Virus genome (UHGV): UHGV-1368192 | Origin: a virus | DNA: 64,000 nucleotides | Reading direction: 5' to 3' (one strand) | Shown: in pieces, positions 1 through 60,052 of the stretch | Numbering within the stretch: position 1 is the first letter of the stretch | Layout: each line of letters opens with the position of its first letter | Notes under the pieces: model-generated | What the model was told of the DNA's origin: nothing | Databases searched by the model: none | Seen by the model: the letters and a program-made list of their open reading frames with translations, nothing else | Made by a program: the position numbers and the translations under genes

Positions 1-240
1 TGGCGAGCTACGACGCGTGTCGCTCGCTATGCTCAGCGGTGGGGTACCCACTTTGTGGTGGTACCCATCGCTCCCTGACAAGGGATATTCCCCGCACCCG
101 GGGGGTGCCAACACGGGAGCTAATTGCCGGAGGGGGTCCGAAACGGGAGGATCCTGCGCGGACAAGTTTAGTAGGGAACGAAAATTTTTGGGGTATATTT
201 TTTTTAGCGCTGGTATAGTGATTATCTGTGTGGTGAGTAT

Positions 241-413
241 GGGTATTATGGTTGAGGAGGGGATGGTGTATTATGATTGAGGAGGCGAGAGTGGATGCGC
301 TTGGTGGTCTAGAGTGATGGTGCTGTAGGTATGTGGCCTTGGTGGTGTGGGTTTGAGGAAGAGGGTAATTTGGTTGAGGGTGGTGGAAGTGGCGTTGGGT
401 AATTTGGTTGAGG
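241..413 (+). repeat. Iteron-like direct repeats GGGTAWTWTGGTTGAGG, 4-5 copies. Exact 17-bp copies sit at 363-379 and 397-413; diverged copies at 241-257 and 266-282; a partial copy at 349-358.
   Basis: Direct reading. The repeats lie in a strongly G+T-skewed stretch, and the two exact copies are spaced 34 bp apart. Confidence 0.6.
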
Positions 414-496
414 AAAGATAAGTATGTATCTTTGGTCTGAGAAGTTTCGACATAACTGTTTGGTATTTATCGTAGGATACGTGTTGCCCGGGATGG

Positions 497-1190
497 GTGG
501 CACGTATTCGTTTTATATGTATCTTTGTGGTGCTGGGTTTTGAGCTTTTTCCCAGCAGATCATTTCCATTGGTTTATAGTTTGATTTAGGGTACGCGTTG
601 TCTGGGAAGATAGCGCGTATCACTTTTATGCATATCTTTGCGGTAGGGGAGTCTTCCCCTCGTGTGTGCCATTGTTTGTATGCATCACTTCTATTGAGGT
701 GGTGCATACTTCTTTATGTATGTATTATCTTTGCTGTGTAGATGATTGCTTCATCATATTGATTGTTTAGTTAGGGGTTACATGCGTCATTCTTAGGGGT
801 GGCGCATGTTTCTTATAAAGTGGTTATATTTGCAGAGGAAAGTCTTCTATCATATTAGGATTATCATTGTTGTTAAACTGAGTTATGCGCATTGCCTGTA
901 TAGGTAGTGCGCATTTCTTTTGTATCTTTGGGTGTGGATATAATAGGTAATTGGCTTATCAAGTATAGCTTGATATTGGTACGCACTGCCTGGGAAGGTG
1001 GTGCGTATTGCTTTTGGGGATTTGAGGAAGGAGTGGTATCTTTGCTGTGTAATAAATCTTATCGTTATTCTTGGGCTGTGGGGTTAGTCCCACAATTTCC
1101 ATTTCAAGTTTGTCTATCAGCTGTGCGCTACTCGGGAGAGTGGCGCATGGTGTTTTGGTAGGTTGTGGATTATATATACCTTTGCAGTGA
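497..1190 (+). repeat. Seven tandem promoter-like repeats: A 497-532, B 608-646, C 696-737, D 796-838, E 901-937, F 979-1049, G 1135-1188. Each has a GGTGGYGCRTA-like core followed by TAT(n)TTTG.
   Basis: Every unit ends in a match to the Bacteroidetes sigma-A -7 consensus TAnnTTTG, followed by YRGTG. Units F and G also have TTTG 19-20 nt upstream, which is the -33 element spacing. Confidence 0.6.
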
Positions 1191-1249
1191 AGGGTGGCGA
1201 CCTTTCTGCATCGTATCTTATCTTTTATCTCTGGCCCCTCGGGGCGTTA

Positions 1250-1323
1250 GGGTGTGATCCAAAGGCTTGGGCCTGACTTTGTCGGGTGGCTGACGCTGAG
1301 GTGGTTCGATTCCCCCGCACTCT
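1250..1323 (+). tRNA. tRNA-like element, possibly degenerate, about 74 nt, with a canonical T-loop GGTTCGATTCC.
   Basis: GGTTCGATTCC at 1303-1313. A 7-bp acceptor pairing gggtgtg/cgcactc is possible if two G-U wobbles are allowed. The D arm, anticodon arm and T-stem could not all be made canonical by hand. Confidence 0.3.
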
Positions 1324-1327
1324 ACTA

Positions 1328-1383
1328 CTGACTGGTGCTGTAGGCACGCGTGACGACGCTAGGGTTTGATTCCCTACGGTCAG
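1328..1383 (+). other. Truncated tRNA-like fragment with a clean T-arm (TAGGG-TTTGATT-CCCTA) and an acceptor pairing ctgactg/cggtcag. At about 56 nt it is too short for a full tRNA.
   Basis: Direct reading; it lacks room for both a D arm and an anticodon arm. Confidence 0.2.
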
Positions 1384-1737
1384 GTCTTATCACTGCTCTT
1401 TCCTCATGAGGAAGACAGTAAACACACATTGCGCTTGTAGGGCCCTATCCCCGAAGGCGATGGTCCGCGACTGATAGGTCGGTCATGCGGATAGTGGTGT
1501 GAGATGGCTGTATTTCTAGAGTATGGCTCGGTGCGCTTTACGACTCACGAATGGGGGACACCAAAAATCGTCCTAAGATCCCCTGCCAATCAAAAGACGC
1601 GTATCGTCTTCTTCATAGGGCCTAACCCCAAGGATGCCGTACAGGTCCTATAATGACGCTCACCTTTCCATAGGGTGGGCGTCGCCTTTTATACGCCACC
1701 ACAATATCCTCTTTCCTCAGGCCATATCTTTATGCCT

Positions 1738-1769: not shown

Positions 1770-3245
1770 ATGGCAAAAGATAATCAACCACAAATATCAG
1801 TACCTCTACGTGCGGCCGCTGACTCTACCAAGGTCAAGCGGTTCTACAGTAGTGGTAATGGCTCTGTCAACACTACTGGGTTTGGCGAGTATATAAGCCA
1901 GTCCAACAACGTGGCCAACGATACTGACACCGGGGACCTTGCTTCTAAGCTGGCTAATGCTGGGGCTATTGGATCTATAGGTGCTACGCTAGCTGCTATC
2001 ACAGGTAGGATAGGTGTCAATGCTGCCTACTCTGGTGGTAAGACCCTTGTGAAGCCCATTGCGAGGACCGCCTATGGTGTAAAAGCTATTGGGAGGAATA
2101 TCGCTGATAGGGTCATGAGGAAGGAGGTAATAGTTCCTATCGGAGAGAATGCCGCTCGATATGCAAGTGAGGCTGATAAGGCTGGCTCTTGGTTTGGTAA
2201 GGCAGCTAATGCTGAGGCTGCCATCGTTGGTGACAAGGCCCTCAAGGGTGGCGCTAAGCTGGCTAAGTTCGCAAAGTACTCTAAGTTCATCAAGTGGGCT
2301 GGTCCCTTGGCTACAGCCGCTGATGTGGGGATTTCAGCTATAGCCTCTAACGCCGCACTACATGGGAAGTACGATCCTGAAAAGCTGCCTAGGTATAACA
2401 CCGGCGAAGTGGGTGATGATATACCTGGCTATAGGATAGGAAGCCATGCAGGTCTCGTCAACCCTAGTGGTGTTGGCAATAATGTTCTTGGTACAGCTGG
2501 TGAGTTCATACACGGCACCGCCTCAATGTTTGATGGTGCGAGCTCTCTACCTGGCAAGGCGGCCAAGGGGCTGGTAGGCCTTGTCGCCTCCGATGAGACG
2601 GCGACAAAGTACCAGAAGGGTATGGATGGTATTGTCCGCACGATGAAGGGAGCTCTTGGGGTCAAAGAGAATCCTCTTAACCTGGTCAAGAAGGCGGCTA
2701 GCATGATAACGGTAGAGGGCGACCAGGATGTCAACAAGGTTTATGGCAAGGATATGCGCGGTCGTATGATGGCAGACCTCTTCGTCAGAGCTAAGATGCG
2801 CGGCATGGAGGGTGTACCTAACTCTTACATGGCTGTTAACTCAGCCGAAGCTGAAGCAGCTAAGCTCTATAAGGAAGGTAAGCTGGAGAAGGCTGCACTG
2901 GACCAGACACCTGCAGAGATATTCTACAACCCATCTAAGGAGCGTGGCTACAACAAGGACCCTATGATGAACATGGCTGCTTACTACCCTGGTGATGACA
3001 GGTACCCAGTCTATATGCACACCCTCAGGCAGGCATACGCTGAGAAGCATGCAGGTAACAACCCCAAGTCACTTGAGTATAAGAAGTTCGAGCAGGTCTT
3101 CGATAGCTATCTCTCCTCAACCGCTACTAACAGAGGTGGCGAGAATGAGGACATCAGAGATGAGATAAGGAAGGAAGCATTTGACTACTACCACCAGAAG
3201 CGCAAGGCAGCTGCAGAGAAGCGCTATGAGCCTATCAAGAAATAG
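1770..3245 (+). CDS. Gly/Ala-rich virion-associated protein with glycine-zipper-like segments; hypothetical.
   Basis: 491-aa ORF. The start was moved to MAKDNQ, downstream of the -7 box. It contains A/G-rich repeats such as LANAGAIGSIGATLAAITG. Confidence 0.6.
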   Translation: MAKDNQPQISVPLRAAADSTKVKRFYSSGNGSVNTTGFGEYISQSNNVANDTDTGDLASKLANAGAIGSIGATLAAITGRIGVNAAYSGGKTLVKPIARTAYGVKAIGRNIADRVMRKEVIVPIGENAARYASEADKAGSWFGKAANAEAAIVGDKALKGGAKLAKFAKYSKFIKWAGPLATAADVGISAIASNAALHGKYDPEKLPRYNTGEVGDDIPGYRIGSHAGLVNPSGVGNNVLGTAGEFIHGTASMFDGASSLPGKAAKGLVGLVASDETATKYQKGMDGIVRTMKGALGVKENPLNLVKKAASMITVEGDQDVNKVYGKDMRGRMMADLFVRAKMRGMEGVPNSYMAVNSAEAEAAKLYKEGKLEKAALDQTPAEIFYNPSKERGYNKDPMMNMAAYYPGDDRYPVYMHTLRQAYAEKHAGNNPKSLEYKKFEQVFDSYLSSTATNRGGENEDIRDEIRKEAFDYYHQKRKAAAEKRYEPIKK

Positions 3246-3510: not shown

Positions 3511-3892
3511 GCCCTCGTTCAATCACGTGGTTGTCTCACCTGTAGATGTGGATGTCCTCGCCGACTCAAAGTTCAAGGACAGCAAGATCCTCATGAAGTA
3601 CCTCGATCCCAAGATCACGCCTATGCGCGTCATCTATGTGGGCACGAGCGTCAGGACCTGCGAGCCCGGGGATATCGTCCTTGTGAATATCATGAGACAC
3701 TTCCGAGGTGAAGGTGAGCAAGCACACATCGAATTGCCAGCCCTCGAGATTGGCGGCGTAGAGTGTCTCATTGTGTCTGAAGGCGACCTCTATGGTGTTG
3801 CTGATGCAGAGATCCTGGAGGTTGATGTCGCCGCGCAGGAGGAGAAGAAGTCTAGCCTCATCCTTCCCAAGAATGAAATCATCATGCCATGA
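3461..3892 (+). CDS. Hypothetical protein.
   Basis: 143-aa ORF with alternative in-frame Met codons at 3461 and 3482. It overlaps the ATG of the next gene by ATGA. Confidence 0.5.
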   Translation: MKEIKTKMKGLLLKSFKPSFNHVVVSPVDVDVLADSKFKDSKILMKYLDPKITPMRVIYVGTSVRTCEPGDIVLVNIMRHFRGEGEQAHIELPALEIGGVECLIVSEGDLYGVADAEILEVDVAAQEEKKSSLILPKNEIIMP

Positions 3893-4458
3893 TTAAGCTC
3901 TTCAAGAAAGAAGGGCTTGACATAGTGATCTCTGAGGAAGCCTACCTGCTGAAGCCCTTCGCGGATATCTGGAAGAAAGATAAGTCCAAGAATAAGGCTA
4001 CCGCTCAGCTGGAGCTGGCTTTCATATACTTCTTCGCAGACCCCAGATCAGAGTACCAGATGTACAATGATCCTGAGGAAAGGACGAAGATGATAGTAGA
4101 GGGTTTAGGGATGGAGTCCGGATGGGCCCCATCCCCTCTCGTTACTGAGGCTATCACTTTCTATGAGTCGTTCAAGCCCGTATCAGCCAAGCTACTCGAT
4201 AGCACAAGAGGACTCATAAATAAGCTCTCAGCATTCTTAGAGGAGATCGACTTCCATGCGGTGGATGATAAGGGCAAGCCCCTCTATCAGCCAAACACTA
4301 TCACTAACACCATCAAACAGCTCCCTGCACTGGTATCTACTCTCAATGAGGTAGAGAAGACCATGAACTCTGATATTGAGGAGAGCTCAGCTATCCGCGG
4401 TAGCATGAGGAAGGCTGTGGGTGAGGATGCCTTTGACTTTAGTGACGATGACGATTGA
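3889..4458 (+). CDS. Hypothetical protein; possibly the terminase small subunit, judged only by position upstream of TerL.
   Basis: 189-aa ORF immediately upstream of TerL and translationally coupled to it. Confidence 0.5.
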   Translation: MIKLFKKEGLDIVISEEAYLLKPFADIWKKDKSKNKATAQLELAFIYFFADPRSEYQMYNDPEERTKMIVEGLGMESGWAPSPLVTEAITFYESFKPVSAKLLDSTRGLINKLSAFLEEIDFHAVDDKGKPLYQPNTITNTIKQLPALVSTLNEVEKTMNSDIEESSAIRGSMRKAVGEDAFDFSDDDD

Positions 4459-6709
4459 GCTTAATGAATATCAGACACCGCTAGAGGTCCTCACGCCAGA
4501 CATGCCTGAGGAGGTGAAGGAGCAGATGGATGACTTCATCCAATCTGTCCCCTTCATCCAGCACCTCATAAGCCCACACCGCAAGCGCGCTAAGGACCTG
4601 CAGCGTGATGAGCGTGGTCGTATCATAGTAGACATCGCCCATCCTCATATCCTTGAGGACATGGACTACTTCAGGCCTGCAGCTATACACTTCGAGAAGT
4701 ACGGCTGCTACACCAAACTCAAGCCTAATACCAACCCTTCATCTCCCTTTGGGCAATGGCTCCGTGAGGAGACAAGAAGAGTCCTTGACGGCTACGTGCG
4801 TGAGTCTGATGGCGAGTGGATAACAGGCGACCTGTACTTTTACCTAAACTACAGTCCTATCATGGTCTCTAAGATCAGAGAGGACCAGCCAGGTGTAGCT
4901 GACCGCGTGGAGGCATTTCCTGAGATGTGGGAGGGTGTGTACTGGAGATACCACTACCTGTATCAAGCGCGTAATGGAGGTATGTATAATGCCTTCCAGG
5001 GTGGTAATCATGCCTTTGAGCTAGCTCGTCGTGGTGCAGGTAAGTCCTACTCTCTAGCCTCACTCATGGCTAAGCGTCTCCTTGTCGGTGAGTCTAAGAA
5101 GGTGCAGAAGCGCGTGACCAGCGTTCTTCTTGGCTATATCAAGGAATACCTGCAAGACAAGGACGGTACGCTCTCTAAGTTCGAGCCGATGATGAACTTC
5201 GTCAGATCTCATACCGAGTGGCCCAATAGTCTCGTGAGGAACAGCATGAGCGATATGATGTGGCGTTGCGCATACATCGATCCTCGCACAGGAGCGGTAG
5301 AAGGGAAGAACAACGTCGTCATGGGACTGCCTGTCAAGGATGATGACTCTAAGGCGCGTGGTAAGCGTGGTTGGATCTTCATCGAGGAGTTCGGTTCATT
5401 CCCTTCCCTCATCGACCTATACAACACCATCATGTACTCTGTTGAGGAAGGTGGTGTGACCTTCGCGCTTATCTATGGTGTTGGTACGGCTGGTTCTGAT
5501 GAGTCTGAGTTCTCCTCAGCACAGGAGATCATGTACCACCCTGTAGCCTACAAGGTCTACAACGTGCCTAACGTCTACGACAAGGCCACAGGTGGTAGCA
5601 AGGATCGCTTCTGCTTCTTCTTCCCGGCGTACGTCAATCGTAAGGGTTGCTACAACATCGATGGTGTCTCTGACGTGACTAGGGCTCTCTATGAGATCCT
5701 GATGGATAGGTACCGTATCAAGTACAGCACGACCAACCAGGACACGCTGATACGAAGGATCGCGGAAATGCCTATCGTTCCTCAGGAGGCTATCCTGCAG
5801 GTTAAGGCTAGCTACTTCCCATCCCACGCCTTGAGAGAGAGACTGGCTGAGATCGATAATGACCCATCCTTCTATGCAGGTGTAATCTCCTGTGAAGTGT
5901 CGCGCAAGGGTTATGATGTGAGTATCCATCCTGTCAATGACCTTCCCATCCGTAACTTCCCATTGCCAGACAATAAATCTGCAGGGCATGTTGAGATCTT
6001 CGCTATGCCAGAGAAGGATGCTGATGGCAAGGTGCAGCAGGGTAGGTACATCGCGGCTATGGACCCATACGACAACGACCAGGCGGATACCTCCTCCTTA
6101 GGATCGTTCTTCGTCCTGGACCTCTTCACCGATGAGATCGTCTGTGAATACACCGGTAGACCTACATTCTCAGATGACTTCTACCGCACCTGCTGTGACA
6201 TAGCTATCCTCTACGACTGCCGTATATGCTATGAGAATAACAAGAAGGGTCTCTTCGCCTACTGCTCAAGGTACAACCTCACGCACCTACTTGAGGACAC
6301 ACTTGAGTTCCTACGTGACAGGGACCTCCTCAAGGCAAGGCCTATTGGTAATGCAGCTAAGGGTGTGACAGCTACTGCCGGTATCAACGCCTATGCTAGG
6401 AAGAAGCTCGCTGAGTGGCTCGTCCAGCCTGTGAGTATAACAAGGCAGACAGATGAGGGTGAGGTCTACGAGCAGGATATGCCTAACCTATGCAGGATAA
6501 AGAATCGTGCTCTTCTTCAGGAGCTCATAGCGTGGAATGACATAGGTAACTTCGACCGCGTGTCAGCAATGGGTATCCTGATGTTGTACAGAGAATCAAT
6601 GCTCATAAACTTCCAAGAGCATGATGATGAGACGCAAGAAGAGATTGATAGCAAGATGAGCTTCTTTAATCGCAATCTGCGTAGGGATAGGCGCAAGCCT
6701 TATCTTTAA
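4448..6709 (+). CDS. terL: Terminase large subunit.
   Basis: Walker A-like motif RRGAGKSYS at about 5027-5050. The C-terminal half is Asp-rich (DPYDNDQAD) and nuclease-like. The size is about 750 aa. The start overlaps the upstream stop (ATGACGATTGA). Confidence 0.75.
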   Translation: MTIELNEYQTPLEVLTPDMPEEVKEQMDDFIQSVPFIQHLISPHRKRAKDLQRDERGRIIVDIAHPHILEDMDYFRPAAIHFEKYGCYTKLKPNTNPSSPFGQWLREETRRVLDGYVRESDGEWITGDLYFYLNYSPIMVSKIREDQPGVADRVEAFPEMWEGVYWRYHYLYQARNGGMYNAFQGGNHAFELARRGAGKSYSLASLMAKRLLVGESKKVQKRVTSVLLGYIKEYLQDKDGTLSKFEPMMNFVRSHTEWPNSLVRNSMSDMMWRCAYIDPRTGAVEGKNNVVMGLPVKDDDSKARGKRGWIFIEEFGSFPSLIDLYNTIMYSVEEGGVTFALIYGVGTAGSDESEFSSAQEIMYHPVAYKVYNVPNVYDKATGGSKDRFCFFFPAYVNRKGCYNIDGVSDVTRALYEILMDRYRIKYSTTNQDTLIRRIAEMPIVPQEAILQVKASYFPSHALRERLAEIDNDPSFYAGVISCEVSRKGYDVSIHPVNDLPIRNFPLPDNKSAGHVEIFAMPEKDADGKVQQGRYIAAMDPYDNDQADTSSLGSFFVLDLFTDEIVCEYTGRPTFSDDFYRTCCDIAILYDCRICYENNKKGLFAYCSRYNLTHLLEDTLEFLRDRDLLKARPIGNAAKGVTATAGINAYARKKLAEWLVQPVSITRQTDEGEVYEQDMPNLCRIKNRALLQELIAWNDIGNFDRVSAMGILMLYRESMLINFQEHDDETQEEIDSKMSFFNRNLRRDRRKPYL

Positions 6710-6734: not shown

Positions 6735-9152
6735 ATGAACGAAAAGAAACAAAAGGGTGGATTTCCTCAACAGAATCTCCCTAATAGCAGAAAGACACGT
6801 GACTGGTGCATCCAGTGCGTGGACTGGGCGAAGGGAACATCCTCTGTTGCTTCCTCATCGTCCGTAAGGCATAGCATCGCAAGGAAGAAGATTAACTATG
6901 ACCTCATCAATGGTATCGTCCATGAGGAGGATATGATGGCTTTCTTCAACCCCTATGACTTCGCTGATCATGATGCCCCCGGCAAGGTACAGCACTTTCC
7001 TATCATCAACTCTAAGATCAATGTCCTCCTCGGTGAGGAATCGCGTAGGCCCTTTGACTACCGTGTCATCGTGACCAACCCTACTGCGGTGTCAGATATG
7101 GAGGAGATGAAGAAACAGCAGGTGATGGAGAACATCATGGCTGTTATGGAGTCTGGTATCCAGGACGAGGCACAGCTCAAGGAAGCCTTCAACGAGATAC
7201 AGCATAGGTACGCCTATAAGTGGCAAGACCTGCGTGAGATCCGTGGTAATGCCTTCCTCAAGCACTACTCCTCCGAACTCTCCCTACCACTGATGTTCAA
7301 CAAGGGATTCCTTGACGCACTCATCGTGGGTGAGGAGATATACAGGTGTGATATCGTAGCTGGTGAACCTACTATCGAGAGACTCGACCCTATGAAGGTG
7401 CGAGTGTTCAAGTCTGGATCATCAGGTAGCATTGAAGATGCCGACATCGTTGTGGTGGAAGACTACTGGTCCCCATCACGTATCCTTGATGTCTATGGAG
7501 ATAGTCTGACGAAGGAAGAGATCGACAAGATACACTCTGGCTCTTCCTCAGGACTTATAGGTGGTGAAGGAGATAACTTCACGGTCGCAGAGATGTTTGG
7601 TCGTTTTGGTATCCATTACTCTGGGCCTAACGATACAGCTATATACAACGGCACTACTGTGGCTTCCTCACTCACCCCTTATGACTTTGAAGGTAACGTG
7701 CGCGTCATGCAGGTCTACTGGAAGTCCATCAGGCAGGTGAAGAAGATTACCTCTGTCGATCCTATGACAGGTGCAGAGGTGTCTACGCTTATGCCTAGTG
7801 ACTACAAGGTTGATGAGCTCGCTGGTGAGACCGCGAAGATCATGTACATCAATGAGGCGTGGGAAGGTGTGCTTATCGGTAATGATATCTATGCTAACCT
7901 TGGCCCCAGGAAGATCCAGTTCAACAGGCTCTCCAATCCTTCCAAGTGCCACTTCGGTATTATCGGTAGTGTCTATAACCTCAGCGACGACAAGCCTTAT
8001 TCTCTCGTCGATATGATGAAGCCTTATAGCTACATGTACAATCTTGTGCATGATAAACTCAATAAGATCATCTACGACAACATCGGTAAGGTCGTGCAGC
8101 TGGATATGGCTAAGCTCCCCGGCAAGATGGAGTATCCAGAGTGGTGGTCCGTCCTGAGGAGGATGAAGATGGCTGTGACCAACTCTTTTGAGGAAGGGAA
8201 GGTAGGTGTTGCCAAGGGTAAGCTAGCCGGCGCACTGAACAACAACGTAGCTGCGTCTATCGACCTTGACCTCTCCTCATCTATCATGAACCACATACAG
8301 CTCCTCGCCTCTATCAAGGAGGAGATGGCTGACGTGGCTGGTATCTCAAGACAGCGTGAAGGTCAGATCTACAATAGGGAGACCGTAGGAGGTGTCGAAC
8401 GCGCCACACTGCAGTCCTCGTATATCACAGAGTGGATATTCACTATCCATGAGGATGTCAAGAAGCGCGCGTTAGAGTGCTTCCTCGAGGTAGCAAAGAT
8501 TTCACTACGCTATGGATCAAAGAAGTTCGAGTACATCCTTCCAGACCAGTCTAGGCAGATCATGTCTGTCGGAGGAGAAGAGTTTGCAGAGTGCGACTAT
8601 GGTATCACTATTGATTCTTCTCGTGGGACGATGGAGATCAATCAGAAGCTGGATATGCTGGCTCAAGCCGCTCTCCAAAATCAGGCCATTGACTTCTCTG
8701 CTATCATCAAACTCTATCAGTCCATCTCTATCGCTGAGAAGGCAAGCATCATTGAGCAGGGTGAGCAGGCTATGCGTCAACGTCAGGCTGAGCAGGCACA
8801 GGCTCAACAGCAAGCTGAACAACAGGCTGCAGAACAGCAAATGCAGCTCAAGATGGCTGAGCTCGATCTCAAGGACCGAATTAGTCAACGTGAAGTGGAC
8901 GCCCAGCTTGAGATTGCTAAGATGAAGGAGGCGTTTGGCTTCGGTCAGACAATCTTCCGTATCGACGATGACGTGTTCTCTGAGGAAGAGCAAAAGACTC
9001 TCGAGCAGTCCGATAGGCAGTTCGATGAGAAAATGAAGCTCGAGAAGGAGAAGCTCGCGGCCAACAACAAATACAAGCAGCGACAACTGGAGATCCAGGA
9101 GCAAGCTGCAAAGGCAGCCAGTGCCAAGGTGGTATCTGGTAAAAAGAAGTAG
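6735..9152 (+). CDS. Putative portal protein.
   Basis: 805 aa, directly after TerL, which is the crAss-like gene order. The C-terminus is a Q/A/E-rich coiled coil. Confidence 0.5.
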   Translation: MNEKKQKGGFPQQNLPNSRKTRDWCIQCVDWAKGTSSVASSSSVRHSIARKKINYDLINGIVHEEDMMAFFNPYDFADHDAPGKVQHFPIINSKINVLLGEESRRPFDYRVIVTNPTAVSDMEEMKKQQVMENIMAVMESGIQDEAQLKEAFNEIQHRYAYKWQDLREIRGNAFLKHYSSELSLPLMFNKGFLDALIVGEEIYRCDIVAGEPTIERLDPMKVRVFKSGSSGSIEDADIVVVEDYWSPSRILDVYGDSLTKEEIDKIHSGSSSGLIGGEGDNFTVAEMFGRFGIHYSGPNDTAIYNGTTVASSLTPYDFEGNVRVMQVYWKSIRQVKKITSVDPMTGAEVSTLMPSDYKVDELAGETAKIMYINEAWEGVLIGNDIYANLGPRKIQFNRLSNPSKCHFGIIGSVYNLSDDKPYSLVDMMKPYSYMYNLVHDKLNKIIYDNIGKVVQLDMAKLPGKMEYPEWWSVLRRMKMAVTNSFEEGKVGVAKGKLAGALNNNVAASIDLDLSSSIMNHIQLLASIKEEMADVAGISRQREGQIYNRETVGGVERATLQSSYITEWIFTIHEDVKKRALECFLEVAKISLRYGSKKFEYILPDQSRQIMSVGGEEFAECDYGITIDSSRGTMEINQKLDMLAQAALQNQAIDFSAIIKLYQSISIAEKASIIEQGEQAMRQRQAEQAQAQQQAEQQAAEQQMQLKMAELDLKDRISQREVDAQLEIAKMKEAFGFGQTIFRIDDDVFSEEEQKTLEQSDRQFDEKMKLEKEKLAANNKYKQRQLEIQEQAAKAASAKVVSGKKK

Positions 9153-20136: not shown

Positions 20137-21699
20137 ATGAGTAAGTTAATTCAGAATGGGCTCCAGCCCTTACAGGTAGCAAGGACCTCTGGGTGGAATG
20201 GTCTGACGACCGAGAACCACCTCGCATCCATCGGCTATCGCTCTCCCCAGCTTCTGGCGGACTTCATGGTGAATCTTGTGTCACGAAACTCGAAGGGTAG
20301 TAACCTCGAGGCTTTCCTCCGCAAGTTCCCTATCAAGTACGTAGAAACGACCAACGACTACGAATGGGATGTTGTCGGTGGTTATAGGCGTAATATCCCT
20401 CTGATCCAGGCTCGCGACGAGAGCGGTGCGGTCATCGACGAGAACTACGGTAACGTCGGTCGCAACTTCTCTCCCTTCTTCCTCGTCTTCCCTGAGGACT
20501 ACTTCTTCAAGGGTGAGATCATCATGGGTGAGAAGAACGAAGTCTATCCTCTGCATATCCAGGATCACCCTGTCAACGAAGGTTCGCAGGTTGTCTACCG
20601 TGTAGTCCTCGCTAACGGTGATGAGAATGGTATCCCTGCAAGGGAACTTCTGGAAGGTCGTAGGTTCAGCTACTCTCACACGATCATCGAGAGTGAAATG
20701 TCTCGTAGTGTTGGTGGTATCCGCTTCGGTGAGGCCAACAGGATGCGTAACACCTTCACGAATATCCGTCTTGACTACAAGGTCGCTTCTGAGCGTTTCG
20801 TCAAGGAGAACAGCGGTATGATGTTCCTCTACCCCTTCATCGATCCCGACAACGAGAACAAGGTTGAGATCAAGGAGGCATGGGTACACTACACCGAGTG
20901 GCTTGCTGAAATCCAGTTCCGCGAAATGAAGGCTAACATGCTTGCCTATGGTCGCTCTACCAAGGGTGCTAACGGTGAGTTCACGCTCTTCGGTGCTTCT
21001 GGTAACAAGATCAAGACCGGTGCTGGTCTCTACGAGCAGATCTCTTACGGAAATCAGCACTACTACACGAAGTTCAACATCGAGATGTTCGAACGCGCGC
21101 TGGTAGACTTCTCTGTCGACAACAAGGAGTTCGGCGAACGTAAGTACATCCTTCGTACCGGTGAGTATGGTGCTATCGCCTTCCACAAGGCTGTCTCTGA
21201 CTCTGTCAAGGGTTGGTCTTACATCGGCGACGGTAACGCTCCTGCTATCACGAGGACGAACAGCCCTCTCCACGACAACGCTCTGGCTGCAGGCTATCAG
21301 TTCACTGAGTACCGTGCTCCTAACGGTGTCACGATCACTCTTGACGTTGACAGCATGTACGACGACATCGTCCGCAACAAGATCTCTCATCCCCAGGGTG
21401 GCACGGCGTTCTCTCACCGCTTCGACCTCTTCGACTGCGGTACGACGGACAACCCCAACATCCAGCTTGTACAGCCTAAGGGCGCAGAAGAACACCGCTC
21501 TGTCATCGTGGGTACGACGAGGTACAACGTCGCTGGCACGCTGATGCAGCACGCTCTTAGCGCTTATGGTGGTGGTACGTACCAGCACTCTGCTAACGAT
21601 GAGGATAGCGTACACTTCACTCGCACCGCTACGATGGGTGTATGTGTCCGTGACGCATCGCGCGTAATGTCGTTCATCCCTTCGATCCTCAGGGACTAA
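20137..21699 (+). CDS. Putative major capsid protein.
   Basis: 520 aa, a typical crAss-like MCP size, positioned after the scaffold-like gene. The 444-aa antisense ORF inside it is judged an artifact. Confidence 0.5.
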   Translation: MSKLIQNGLQPLQVARTSGWNGLTTENHLASIGYRSPQLLADFMVNLVSRNSKGSNLEAFLRKFPIKYVETTNDYEWDVVGGYRRNIPLIQARDESGAVIDENYGNVGRNFSPFFLVFPEDYFFKGEIIMGEKNEVYPLHIQDHPVNEGSQVVYRVVLANGDENGIPARELLEGRRFSYSHTIIESEMSRSVGGIRFGEANRMRNTFTNIRLDYKVASERFVKENSGMMFLYPFIDPDNENKVEIKEAWVHYTEWLAEIQFREMKANMLAYGRSTKGANGEFTLFGASGNKIKTGAGLYEQISYGNQHYYTKFNIEMFERALVDFSVDNKEFGERKYILRTGEYGAIAFHKAVSDSVKGWSYIGDGNAPAITRTNSPLHDNALAAGYQFTEYRAPNGVTITLDVDSMYDDIVRNKISHPQGGTAFSHRFDLFDCGTTDNPNIQLVQPKGAEEHRSVIVGTTRYNVAGTLMQHALSAYGGGTYQHSANDEDSVHFTRTATMGVCVRDASRVMSFIPSILRD

Positions 21700-59500: not shown

Positions 59501-60052
59501 TTAGATGTACCCCTCTAAGTGAAACACGTAGATTACCTCTTCGCCTTTCTTCTCAGGGTGGGGGCCATTTATCATTACTACACTGCTCATATAGCACCTA
59601 TCCTCAAGCACGTCCTCTGGCTTTAACTTTTCAGACAGCATGATGGGGATGGTATTTAGATCATCCCAGGTCTTTATGATATGCCGTGCGTAGTCCTCCT
59701 TATTATCGAAGAAGCCGTAGTACATCTCCATTACATCCTGTGGATCTACATCTCCCTTCAGATCATCAATGTACAGCTCATAGGCAATTAGCTCCTCATC
59801 GTTTAGAGTCCCTACAGCCTTAAAGAAGTTATCCTTGATGATCTCCTTGCTCTCCCAGTCCACAAGGGCTGCAGGCATATCAAATCCGATAGAGTGCTTT
59901 TCCCAGCCATTAGACAGATATTCCTGTAGCTCATTGGCAAACTGGTCCTTTGTCATCTTGCCTACGGAGAACCTCTTGTCTTTGTAGACTAGCTCTCCAG
60001 CCTTCATCTTCTTTGCGATCAGGACGATGGCTTCGTCTTTTAATGTATTCAT
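59501..60052 (-). CDS. Small acidic protein; anti-defence candidate.
   Basis: 183-aa ORF. Confidence 0.5.
   Translation of the reverse strand: MNTLKDEAIVLIAKKMKAGELVYKDKRFSVGKMTKDQFANELQEYLSNGWEKHSIGFDMPAALVDWESKEIIKDNFFKAVGTLNDEELIAYELYIDDLKGDVDPQDVMEMYYGFFDNKEDYARHIIKTWDDLNTIPIMLSEKLKPEDVLEDRCYMSSVVMINGPHPEKKGEEVIYVFHLEGYI

Follow-up and report, generated by a model that had tools for sequence, protein, structure and literature searches.

Bacteria such as Listeria (LhrC1-4) and Pseudomonas (PrrF1/PrrF2) carry tandem sibling small RNA (sRNA) genes, in which every copy has a promoter and a terminator to itself and the members have a common sequence and seed. Among phages, T7 carries three tandem host promoters (A1, A2 and A3) that lie about 100-125 bp apart and are not each followed by a terminator, and the PR'-6S RNA-tR' region of lambda is one unit giving a short terminated RNA and loading an antiterminator. 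Few viruses of the human body are as abundant as the crAss-like phages, and to our knowledge almost nothing is known of their RNA biology; likewise, as far as we know, Bacteroidota lack Hfq and ProQ, and sRNA mechanisms in these bacteria are only starting to be studied. The rule used in Bacteroides is that a start site together with an intrinsic terminator makes a canonical intergenic sRNA, one of which, GibS, pairs with translation-initiation regions (Ryan et al. 2020, PMC7366714). In the one crAss-like transcriptome on record, that of phi14:2, abundant non-coding transcripts of unexplained function come from the g004-g006 intergenic regions, where over 1.5 kb of non-coding sequence is transcribed unidirectionally, beginning with the first time point and lasting through the whole infection; middle and late genes of this phage use host RNA polymerase, and no upstream motif is common to its early transcripts, which the virion polymerase makes (Drobysheva et al., bioRxiv 10.1101/2020.03.07.982082). 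An intergenic region of LUZ7, an N4-like phage with a virion RNA polymerase, gives several small RNAs bounded by start sites and terminators (PMC9163698).

Here we analysed a 64,000-nt stretch of the virus genome UHGV-1368192 (the window), from an uncultured crAss-like phage, in which a preliminary description had listed seven tandem promoter-like repeats upstream of the structural genes. We consider it probable that positions 427-1160 hold seven genes for small non-coding RNAs (U0-U6), clustered head to tail, and that a further promoter, P7, drives a long structured RNA. This reading draws on features seen in the sequence, namely the promoter boxes, strand-specific hairpins, compensatory changes, conserved bodies and the lack of similarity between those bodies; the predicted genes each have their own promoter and terminator, are non-coding and are conserved between relatives. 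They resemble Bacteroides sRNA genes in combining a sigma-ABfr-type promoter and an intrinsic terminator with a non-coding transcript of 70-150 nt, part of which is unpaired, and differ in being phage-encoded, in forming a head-to-tail series of seven where every terminator directly adjoins the promoter that follows it, and in being predicted here from sequence. Like the sibling sRNA genes, several stand in a row with their own promoters and terminators, but here the bodies are unrelated while promoters and terminators are alike, and the carrier is a lytic phage. The array shares with lambda and T7 the placement of strong host-type promoters before a large phage operon, whereas it has eight units, individually conserved bodies and a structural operon with a promoter of its own.

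Within the crAss-like phages, phi14:2 belongs to the same family (Steigviridae) and has a long intergenic non-coding region as well, but that region contains a single TACCTTTG (at 2929) and few terminators, is in part a tmRNA gene, and has no sequence similarity to the array. The tRNA arrays of crAss001 (23 tRNAs within the 12 kb analysed) and IAS virus (18 tRNAs) both occupy the genome position of the array described here, between divergent modules and upstream of the terminase/portal block, and are likewise dense in small RNA genes; in contrast, the units described here are not tRNAs, only the modules at 1248-1383 recall tRNAs, and no regular series of -7 boxes was found among the tRNAs of crAss001 and IAS virus. 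LUZ7 differs in that its late-expressed small RNAs are three overlapping species with a single start site in common, with no array of separate promoter-terminator units (PMC9163698). The earlier statement that such an element had not been described was roughly right: we found no paper describing this layout in crAss-like phages; phage sRNA genes themselves are a known kind, and the abundant intergenic non-coding transcripts of phi14:2 were already on record.

Promoter boxes and terminator hairpins

The -7 consensus TAnnTTTG, which is taken from Bacteroides work (PMC7366714), occurs on the + strand at 427, 520, 633, 726, 825, 923, 1037 and 1177, giving eight boxes within 427-1184, and again at 1738, 32 nt upstream of the first structural gene (ATG 1770). 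These nine are among only 26 matches on both strands of the whole window, and the eight array boxes make up most of the 12-13 or so plausible consensus boxes in the 64 kb. With a shuffled background of 17.8 matches per 128 kb, about 0.1 would be expected per 760 nt of one strand, and a Poisson estimate for at least eight boxes in 760 nt is about 3e-13. Successive boxes are 93, 113, 93, 99, 98, 114 and 140 nt apart. The repeats and their -7 boxes are real, as first described, but they number eight rather than seven, the extra unit lying upstream. This unit, P0, has the box TATCTTTG at 427-434 and a -33 TTTG at 403-406 with a 20-nt spacer, is not preceded by a hairpin (as expected if the hairpin is part of the preceding gene), and keeps its box in 21 of 22 distinct relatives. 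P1 (520-527), P2 (633-640), P3 (726-733), P4 (TATATTTG, 825-832) and P5 (923-930) have no -33 TTTG; a stable hairpin occupies that position, and its T-run lies directly 5' of the box. In P6 (1037-1044) and P7 (TACCTTTG, 1177-1184), the terminator tails of U5 and U6 supply the -33 TTTG (1013-1016 and 1154-1157, respectively), with spacers of 20 and 19 nt. The two -33 elements reported previously are those of P6 and P7, and that of P0 had been missed. The coding-gene promoters of this phage lack a -33 TTTG as well, and the motif is reported to be weak or undetectable in some other Bacteroidota (PMC7366714). The YRGTG said to follow each box is exact in two of the seven units (TGGTG and CAGTG), the common form being Y-N-G-T-G. 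Because TAnnTTTG also sits about 32-36 nt 5' of three ATGs, at 1770, 33001 and 57004 (- strand), the phage appears to use it as a gene promoter. Host RNA polymerase would transcribe each unit of the array once the DNA enters the cell.

The second shared element, the GGTGGYGCRTA core, had been taken for part of the promoter. It is exact at 698 and 997, the only exact matches in the window, and has one or two mismatches at 496, 609, 798, 903 and 1139; minus-strand matches at 679 and 980 show it to be one arm of an inverted repeat. Rather than a promoter element, it is the descending 3' arm of the terminator hairpin of the preceding unit, and each unit accordingly reads as a promoter, a non-coding body and a terminator. 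The hairpins have stems of 13-16 bp and loops of 4-5 nt, mostly tetraloops (GGGA in three units), and are followed by a T-run. A terminator scan returned eight sites against 2.3 expected, all on the + strand, of which six close units and one closes the long RNA; the terminator of U5 is absent from the scan list and is supported by RNA folds. Fold z-scores range from -2.5 to -5.8, and the + strand RNA hairpins have energies of -17.6 to -23.0 kcal/mol compared to -8.1 to -13.8 kcal/mol for the opposite strand, which folds 6-12 kcal/mol worse. Each terminator stem includes 2-4 G.U pairs (22 in total). In the 22 distinct sequences compared, pairing is kept in 95-100% of cells of the seven terminator helices; a control with partners slid by 1-3 columns gave pairing of only 38-50%. 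A test of the whole structure counted 8 pairs with changes on both sides, where shuffles averaged 4.3 and 6 in 500 of them attained 8, and 6 of these 8 pairs fall in terminator helices; the covariation rests on few events because the relatives are shallow (about 90% nucleotide identity), and a measure counting further pair types was not above shuffles. On this evidence the array hairpins are intrinsic terminators, selected as RNA on one strand, and every transcript would stop at its own terminator. Such compact, well-insulated promoter-terminator cassettes are possible parts for Bacteroidota engineering.

The same hairpins bear on two other explanations. In phage N4, promoter hairpins recognized by the injected virion RNA polymerase have stems of 5-7 bp, loops of 3 nt, conserved bases and a fixed distance from the start site. 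The idea, raised in the preliminary description, that the units are recognition sites for such a polymerase has in its favour that crAss-like phages carry a virion RNA polymerase and seven of the boxes are preceded by a hairpin. The array stems and loops with their T-runs are unlike those of N4, however, and the stems depend on G.U pairs, whose G.T counterparts in DNA are weak; moreover, a hairpin is missing at P0, what is conserved is the host sigma-A -7 box that also stands before structural genes, and the leftward genes (early by analogy with phi14:2) lie on the other side with no such motif facing them. Together with the lack of a common upstream motif in the early transcripts of phi14:2, these points make a virion-polymerase promoter array highly improbable. 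Transcription-dependent replication origins exist in T7, T4 and lambda, and the hairpin/promoter units could accordingly be origin repeats, or their transcripts could prime or activate replication. The array does lie in a divergent intergenic region of about 2.2 kb between the leftward and rightward modules, and cumulative GC skew is lowest at both window ends, one of which adjoins this region, although transcription direction could explain the skew equally well. We regard an origin as very unlikely, as hairpins that function on one strand only, via G.U pairs, do not suit it, the array has no AT-rich unwinding block, identical short iterons are missing (the units are about 48-61% alike, and TRF finds no tandem repeat in the array), and a 90-kb genome without units 1-6 exists. 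There is also no near-identical repeat in 420-1200.

Sequence and conservation of the units

The seven predicted transcripts are 70-111 nt long, all on the + strand, and often have a short 5' hairpin followed by an unpaired stretch. Predicted U0 (441-516, about 76 nt), whose 5' end would lie about 6-8 nt past the box, ends in a terminator hairpin at 475-509 followed by GTTTTAT; its helix 2 is 100% paired among the relatives and includes two pairs that have changed on both sides, and its body diversity is 0.027. Predicted U1 (about 534-629) has a 5' hairpin, GCTGGG..CCCAGC, at 532-557 and a terminator hairpin at 590-621 followed by ACTTTTAT, and its helix 6 is 100% paired in relatives. In the putative U2 (about 647-716; helices 7 and 8), a 5' hairpin GGGGA-GTCT-TCCCC precedes the terminator hairpin (678-709, then TTCTTTA), and the body at 647-677 is identical in all relatives. 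For predicted U3 (about 740-816), with its terminator hairpin at 780-809 followed by TTCTTAT, helix 10 has changed on both sides from ATGCG/CGCAT to ATGCA/TGCAT. Predicted U4 (about 839-921; terminator hairpin 885-914, then TTCTTTT) exists as two diverged alleles with a common invariant block of 12 nt, GTTGTTAAACTG (868-879), and its helix 13 is 100% paired with two pairs changed on both sides. The candidate U5 (about 937-1016; helices 15 and 16) carries an internal hairpin ATCAAG..CTTGAT and a terminator hairpin at 978-1009 followed by GCTTTTG, and U6, predicted at about 1051-1160 (helices 18 and 20), carries an internal hairpin TGTGGG..CCCACA at 1077-1094 and a terminator hairpin at 1120-1151 followed by GTTTTG.

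Small ORFs within the units were considered and rejected, because every ORF of at least 30 aa in the array region crosses terminators and because the indels inside units among relatives (1, 2 and 5 nt) are not multiples of three; the earlier observation that no coding sequence follows the individual units thus holds. Among the functions that had been proposed, promoters for short non-coding RNAs fit best: downstream of every box in the array come a non-coding body that is conserved and then a hairpin, specific to one strand, with a T-run.

Identity of the array to relatives is 82-97% in most 100-nt bins, like that of neighbouring genes, and 67% in the U4 bin, whereas window positions 101-400 are only 46-66% identical. 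Body diversity ranges from 0 (U2) to 0.12 (U4), with 0.027-0.046 for U0, U5 and U6, and the spacers that separate a T-run from the following box are far more variable, with values up to 0.265. Between units, promoters and terminators are 61% alike and bodies only about 48%, and no word common to the seven bodies was found beyond chance (a candidate seed, ATTGTT, had P = 0.6 and was dropped). Since the bodies are conserved between relatives yet differ from unit to unit, each unit carries its own conserved sequence, which argues for seven distinct RNAs rather than a stack of promoters, and the products would act in trans as seven different RNAs. The stack had been suggested as a possible sigma-factor sink: eight promoters would titrate or recruit host RNA polymerase-sigma A, with terminators recycling the enzyme and the RNAs as by-products. 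The concentration of the plausible consensus boxes of the window in the array would suit such a sink, as would the rank of the boxes among the most conserved elements (diversity 0-0.055) and the tolerated loss of six units in one relative, as expected of a dosage-type element. It gives no reason, however, for bodies conserved as well as the boxes and differing between units, nor for the invariant 12-nt block that U4 retains within an otherwise diverged body, and we consider it rather unlikely.

Relatives and distribution of the array

About 20 contigs from independent assemblies contain this array with all its boxes matching, in several cases many kb away from either contig end, and 22 distinct versions from two collections have eight non-identical units in the same order. 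An assembly artefact or a terminal redundancy might be suspected because the window itself begins in this intergenic region and the ends of several related contigs fall in or near it, 1.9-4.3 kb upstream of gene 1. The independent assemblies, the position of the array more than 6 kb from any end in six 90-kb contigs, and units too dissimilar for collapse or duplication by an assembler leave this explanation a negligible probability, and the redundancy arising only from assembly, named earlier as a possible refutation, is ruled out. One relative with a 90-kb genome, L171 (contig OWMB01000007.1), is without units 1-6, with the deletion junction at TACCTTTG, so these units are not essential. The array predicts eight start sites and eight 3' ends, for which this six-unit deletion variant is a natural comparison.

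Neither megablast nor sensitive blastn of the region against 50,697 GenBank phages gave a match, and tblastn of gene 1 against the same phages gave none either. At a permissive threshold, Rfam returned nothing credible for 420-1200, with all E values above 1; the best match of the array to a Bacteroides sRNA was BTnc201, which scored 18 bits where the threshold is 105 (E = 2.2). The possibility that the units are degenerate tRNAs was rejected, as ARAGORN finds no tRNA or tmRNA in the 64-kb window, and no Rfam match of the tRNA clan was obtained in 420-1200 even at E up to 10. A CRISPR array or type III antitoxin repeats were likewise rejected in view of the period of 93-140 nt, the non-identical repeats and the presence of one promoter per unit; the array matches CRISPR-DR53 with 15.7 bits (E = 7.7).

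A sister clade (58% terminase identity) has an AT-rich intergenic region of 750 nt and a leftward tRNA array instead, and a regular series of boxes is absent from crAss001, IAS virus and phi14:2. A layout scan of IMG/VR with the pattern TATCTTTG-N80-110-TANNTTTG-N80-110-TATCTTTG retrieved, among the matches listed, only this clade together with coding repeats and chance matches in AT-rich DNA. Among the genomes compared and the IMG/VR matches listed, the array thus appears to occur only in this clade. A search for a host by terminase in 185,579 species genomes gave nothing. If the seven units are expressed, small RNAs take up over 1 kb in this clade, along with the majority of its consensus host-type promoters.

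The predicted long RNA and possible targets of U4

Behind the eighth promoter lies a conserved structured RNA of about 500 nt on the + strand (1192-1690; from P7 the region extends to 1692), with two tRNA-like modules at 1248-1324 and 1328-1383 and a terminator hairpin at 1654-1684 followed by CCTTTTAT. The modules give sub-threshold Rfam matches to tRNA-Sec (27.9 bits) and mascRNA (34.1 bits), and 7 pairs of the consensus fold are changed on both sides. The promoter at 1177 is the predicted driver of this RNA. Downstream, P8 (TACCTTTG, 1738-1745, + strand), which is invariant in relatives, precedes the ATG at 1770 of the first structural-module gene.

This arrangement bears on a late-promoter battery of the lambda PR' type, in which short terminated RNAs would be made until a phage antiterminator permits read-through into the structural operon. 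The array is directly upstream of, and co-oriented with, the 41-kb structural module, and a short transcript and a terminator follow each promoter as in PR'-6S RNA-tR'. Before gene 1, however, the 500-nt RNA with its strong terminator and then the separate promoter at 1738 intervene, and the initially transcribed regions have no common sequence or structure beyond Y-N-G-T-G on which an antiterminator could be loaded. Such a battery is therefore unlikely in our view.

A broader picture, speculative and less likely than not, is that a 1.3-kb "RNA island", ending at P8, replaces in this lytic crAss-like phage the tRNA array of its relatives. Seven host-transcribed sRNAs and a long RNA with tRNA-like modules might then form an RNA-based control layer, in which U4, as it accumulates, would shut down translation of the leftward replication module via (U)AACAACAA(UG) and so act as an sRNA-driven temporal switch, while the other RNAs might reprogramme the host. 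For the seven predicted sRNA genes themselves, the mode of action that we propose, and the weakest step of the reading, is base-pairing with translation-initiation regions.

We found no antisense match of at least 14 nt between the array and phage transcripts (those of the window and of about 24 kb from the remainder of the genome, taken from relatives), and duplex energies with start regions were at null level for all units. The six units other than U4 had no significant phage target. The word (U)AACAACAA(UG) stands ahead of many leftward-gene start codons, and its complement, UCAUUGUUGUUAAAC, lies in U4, which could on this account damp translation of these (early/replication) genes. Examples of start regions with AACAACAA are those of the genes that begin at 60052, 59489, 58372 and 61747, all on the - strand. 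Complementarity of at least 8 nt to U4 was present in 13 of 57 leftward-gene start regions and 0 of 30 rightward ones, compared to a shuffle mean of 2.36 (P = 0.0002); corrected for about 42 tests, P is about 0.008 and survives only modestly. The pairing of U4 with AACAACAA start regions may thus serve as a lead, not as proof, and provides one concrete sRNA-target hypothesis. A matched change of the seed and of one orthologous start region fits in five of six genomes, with one exception, and is anecdotal, as it possibly reflects a single event. The other U4 allele, compared with its own genome, gave 16 of 52 start regions at k = 7 (P = 0.0017), and within the body of U4 no block other than the seed is invariant.

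Predicted promoter boxes and terminator hairpins

A -7 consensus and a weak -33 motif have been documented for Bacteroides (PMC7366714). In the array, the -7 box TAnnTTTG was found on the + strand at 427, 520, 633, 726, 825, 923, 1037 and 1177 (P0-P7) and then at 1738, where it precedes the first structural gene's ATG by 32 nt; together these sites account for 9 of the 26 matches on both strands of the whole window, with ~0.1 expected in 760 nt of one strand. All eight array boxes occupied the same offsets in nearly all relatives, a few genomes carrying a point change in one single box. The seven repeat units of the preliminary description proved real, with a box-bearing eighth just upstream of its starting point, and a tandem-repeat search of the window found no simple repeat structure in the array. 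The common core proposed in that description, GGTGGYGCRTA, was exact on the + strand at 698 and 997 only and had 1-2 mismatches in the other five units; because its reverse complement matches at 679 and 980, this motif makes up one side of an inverted repeat. Only boxes 427, 1037 and 1177 have a TTTG at the -33 distance. That element was absent at all three sites where TACCTTTG precedes a coding gene (1738 (+), 32969 (+) and 57040 (-), ~32-36 nt before the ATGs at 1770, 33001 and 57004(-)), which are likely host-type promoters.

With the units laid in register, an inverted repeat followed by a T-run was observed ahead of each box except the first. As + strand RNA, these repeats form uninterrupted stems of 13-16 pairs with loops of 4-5 nt and U-rich tails, and a generic terminator scan of positions 1-2000 returned eight sites compared to 2.3 expected, all on the + strand, including six at the ends of units and one at the end of the long RNA; the U5 terminator was visible in folds only, without a scan match. 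Every terminator stem contained 2-4 G.U pairs, and hairpin energies ranged from -17.6 to -23.0 kcal/mol on the + strand versus -8.1 to -13.8 kcal/mol on the opposite strand, which together indicate selection of the structure on a single strand. An RNA terminator would be expected to behave in this way, and a protein-binding palindrome in double-stranded DNA would not. The conserved core, with its inverted repeat, T-run and strand-specific fold, is accordingly assigned to a terminator arm rather than to the promoter of which it had been described as a part. Box 427 has a proper -33 element and no hairpin upstream, which fits the assignment of every hairpin to the preceding unit, so that a unit would comprise a -7 box, a body of 70-111 nt and a terminator. 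For P1-P5, the box comes immediately after the T-run of the preceding terminator; for P6 and P7, that T-run provides the promoter's -33 TTTG.

Conservation of the units among relatives

Protein-anchored searches yielded loci that share this first gene, 15 of them in IMG/VR and 14 in metagenomes, all from close relatives (~90% nucleotide identity in terminase and portal), and the array was aligned in 22 distinct versions, which refutes the assembly artefact that had been raised against it. Most 100-nt bins of window 401-1500 were 82-97% identical to relatives, a level resembling coding DNA (U4 bin, 67%), and window 101-400 was just 46-66% identical. The seven terminator helices were paired in 95-100% of alignment cells, and pairing fell to 38-50% when helix partners were slid by 1-3 columns. 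Over the whole tested structure, eight pairs had changed on both sides, compared to a mean of 4.3 in shuffles, only 6 of 500 of which reached eight. Terminator helices hold six of these pairs; examples are unit 0, where ACGTG/CACGT is replaced by ACGCG/CGCGT, and unit 3, where ATGCG/CGCAT is replaced by ATGCA/TGCAT. Some predicted body-internal helices, just 65-89% paired, were poorly supported and not relied on.

Pairwise diversity was 0-0.055 in the boxes, 0-0.12 in the bodies and up to 0.265 in the spacer from T-run to next box, and 31 nt of the U2 body were invariant among relatives. Between units, bodies were 48% and terminators 61% alike, with no word common to the bodies beyond shuffle level. 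Relatives differed by indels of 1, 2 and 5 nt inside units, and no plausible ORF was found in the units. Bodies that are conserved between relatives yet mutually dissimilar are what seven distinct RNA genes would show; neither a bare stack of promoters nor a cis-element of a generic kind would be expected to have them, and both readings appear improbable. The reading as promoters for short non-coding RNAs is thus the earlier one that gained support, from conserved individual bodies and strand-specific terminators, while recognition sites for the virion RNA polymerase were not supported; in phi14:2, early virion-polymerase transcripts lack a common upstream motif (Drobysheva et al., bioRxiv 10.1101/2020.03.07.982082). 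We consider it reasonably probable that the array is a cluster of seven small-RNA genes, whose transcription is predicted. The canonical intergenic sRNA of Bacteroides combines a start site with an intrinsic terminator (PMC7366714), and an intergenic small-RNA cluster has been described in an N4-like phage (PMC9163698). Phage-encoded sRNA genes as such are already known; a tight array of seven predicted ones with a long RNA bearing tRNA-like modules appears unprecedented, and our literature search found no paper on such a promoter-terminator array in crAss-like phages.

The predicted long RNA and a probable natural deletion

Box 1177, the eighth predicted promoter, would drive the ~500 nt of highly conserved sequence that follow it (window 1192-1690) and end in a terminator at 1654-1684. 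Consensus folding revealed two cloverleaf-like modules on the + strand, module 1 at 1248-1324 and the mascRNA-like module 2 at 1328-1383, both with stems changed on both sides, and several hairpins of this RNA showed wholesale sequence swaps between relatives with pairing kept. No Rfam family scored above threshold for window 1192-1690 (below threshold: tRNA-Sec, 27.9 bits; mascRNA, 34.1 bits, E=3.9e-05), neither module was called a tRNA by ARAGORN, and the would-be anticodon arm of module 1 ends in a 3-nt loop. These modules may be RNase P/Z processing signals. Taken with the predicted units, this conserved structured RNA makes the whole of 427-1690 an island of predicted RNA genes.

In L171, a 90-kb contig (OWMB01000007.1), the unit 0 terminator leads at ~1825-1925 into a single TACCTTTG box and then the long RNA, without units 1-6. 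The junction suggests that the -7 boxes of P1 and P7 crossed over. Identity of ~10 nt is too short to make an assembler collapse the units; L171 is therefore probably a real variant, and as assembled it shows units 1-6 to be dispensable in some settings at least.

Genome setting and a possible role of U4

Matches to crAss-like families were obtained for the genes of the terminase (4421-6709), portal (6735-9152) and major head protein (20137-21699), and the terminase shares ~50% identity with its counterparts in crAss001 and IAS virus (family Steigviridae); window G+C is ~50%. Rightward structural genes span 1770-42640 and leftward genes run from 42720 to the window end. Since relatives also carry leftward genes left of position 1, the array lies within a ~2.2-kb divergent intergenic region between two modules. 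A G+C-rich block with several short hairpins adjoins the first leftward gene (window 1-170 plus ~400 nt leftward in relatives, as at 3825-4232 of locus L009), and conservation of the first 100 nt of the window is ~84%. In this block the leftward genes have no TAnnTTTG directed towards them, which would fit their not being read by host RNA polymerase.

We searched for targets in the phage itself and in most of the remaining genome taken from close relatives. The array had no antisense match of at least 14 nt to phage transcripts, and duplex energies with start regions were at null level. One signal stood out: AACAACAA, the word found most often in the 36-nt start regions of leftward genes, is part of the complement of UCAUUGUUGUUAAAC, a sequence in U4. 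Read in leftward-gene sense, this word occurs six times in the window, one copy being the array's own complement and 4 of the other 5 preceding a start codon by no more than 25 nt. Complementarity to U4 of at least 8 nt was detected in 13 of 57 leftward-gene start regions and in none of 30 rightward ones (mean of 2.36 over 5000 dinucleotide-shuffled U4 sequences, P=0.0002; ~0.008 allowing for ~42 tests), and a second, strongly diverged U4 allele matched 16 of 52 in its own genome at 7 nt (P=0.0017). The sole invariant block of the U4 body, GTTGTTAAACTG, is the putative seed. A change in the seed was matched in one orthologous start region in five of six genomes, with one exception; this is anecdotal and maybe a single event. 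Pairing between an sRNA seed and translation-initiation regions is documented in Bacteroides (PMC7366714). Damping of leftward-gene translation by U4 is a lead; the same searches gave no phage targets for the other six RNAs.

(T)AACAACAA stands within 25 nt ahead of many leftward start codons (window 42720-64000 (-), and locus L191), and ACAACA and TAACAA are each found in 10 of the 57 leftward start regions. Rightward structural genes favour (T)ATATG(A/G) instead, which suggests translation-initiation contexts specific to each module.

The G-rich word TGGGTAWTWTGGTTGAGGA, which includes GAGGAGG, occurs four times in window 239-414. Relatives vary strongly over this hypervariable stretch (46-66% identity), which differs in its sequence, its indels and its copy number. 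The ends of several related contigs fall in or near the array's intergenic region, and the stretch could be a point where assemblies break or could lie close to the physical genome ends. A second short hypervariable patch was noted at 3801-3900. The first gene of the structural module (1770-3245) has no PHROG match; its middle (window 2500-2700) falls into two allele groups with ~27-40% DNA identity, the remainder being 85-95% identical.

Nucleotide searches of the region found no similar DNA in GenBank phages, and among the matches listed, an IMG/VR pattern scan for three boxes at array spacing returned this clade, coding repeats and chance matches. A sister clade with 6-7 tRNAs, whose terminase is 58% identical, has a leftward tRNA array and an intergenic region rich in AT in place of the RNA units; crAss001 has 23 tRNA genes at the equivalent position and IAS virus has 18, neither with a regular box series. 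ARAGORN detected no tRNA genes in the 64-kb window or in the 18-kb loci of two close relatives (L022 and L030). In phi14:2, two long intergenic regions outtranscribe most genes from the first time point on (bioRxiv 10.1101/2020.03.07.982082). Inside one of these highly transcribed non-coding regions, at 4031-4500 of NC_021806, we observed a tmRNA gene not annotated in the RefSeq record, with an ARAGORN tag peptide of GSSVQKLAMVA* and an Rfam tmRNA score of 46 bits against a threshold of 47 (E=6.8e-16).
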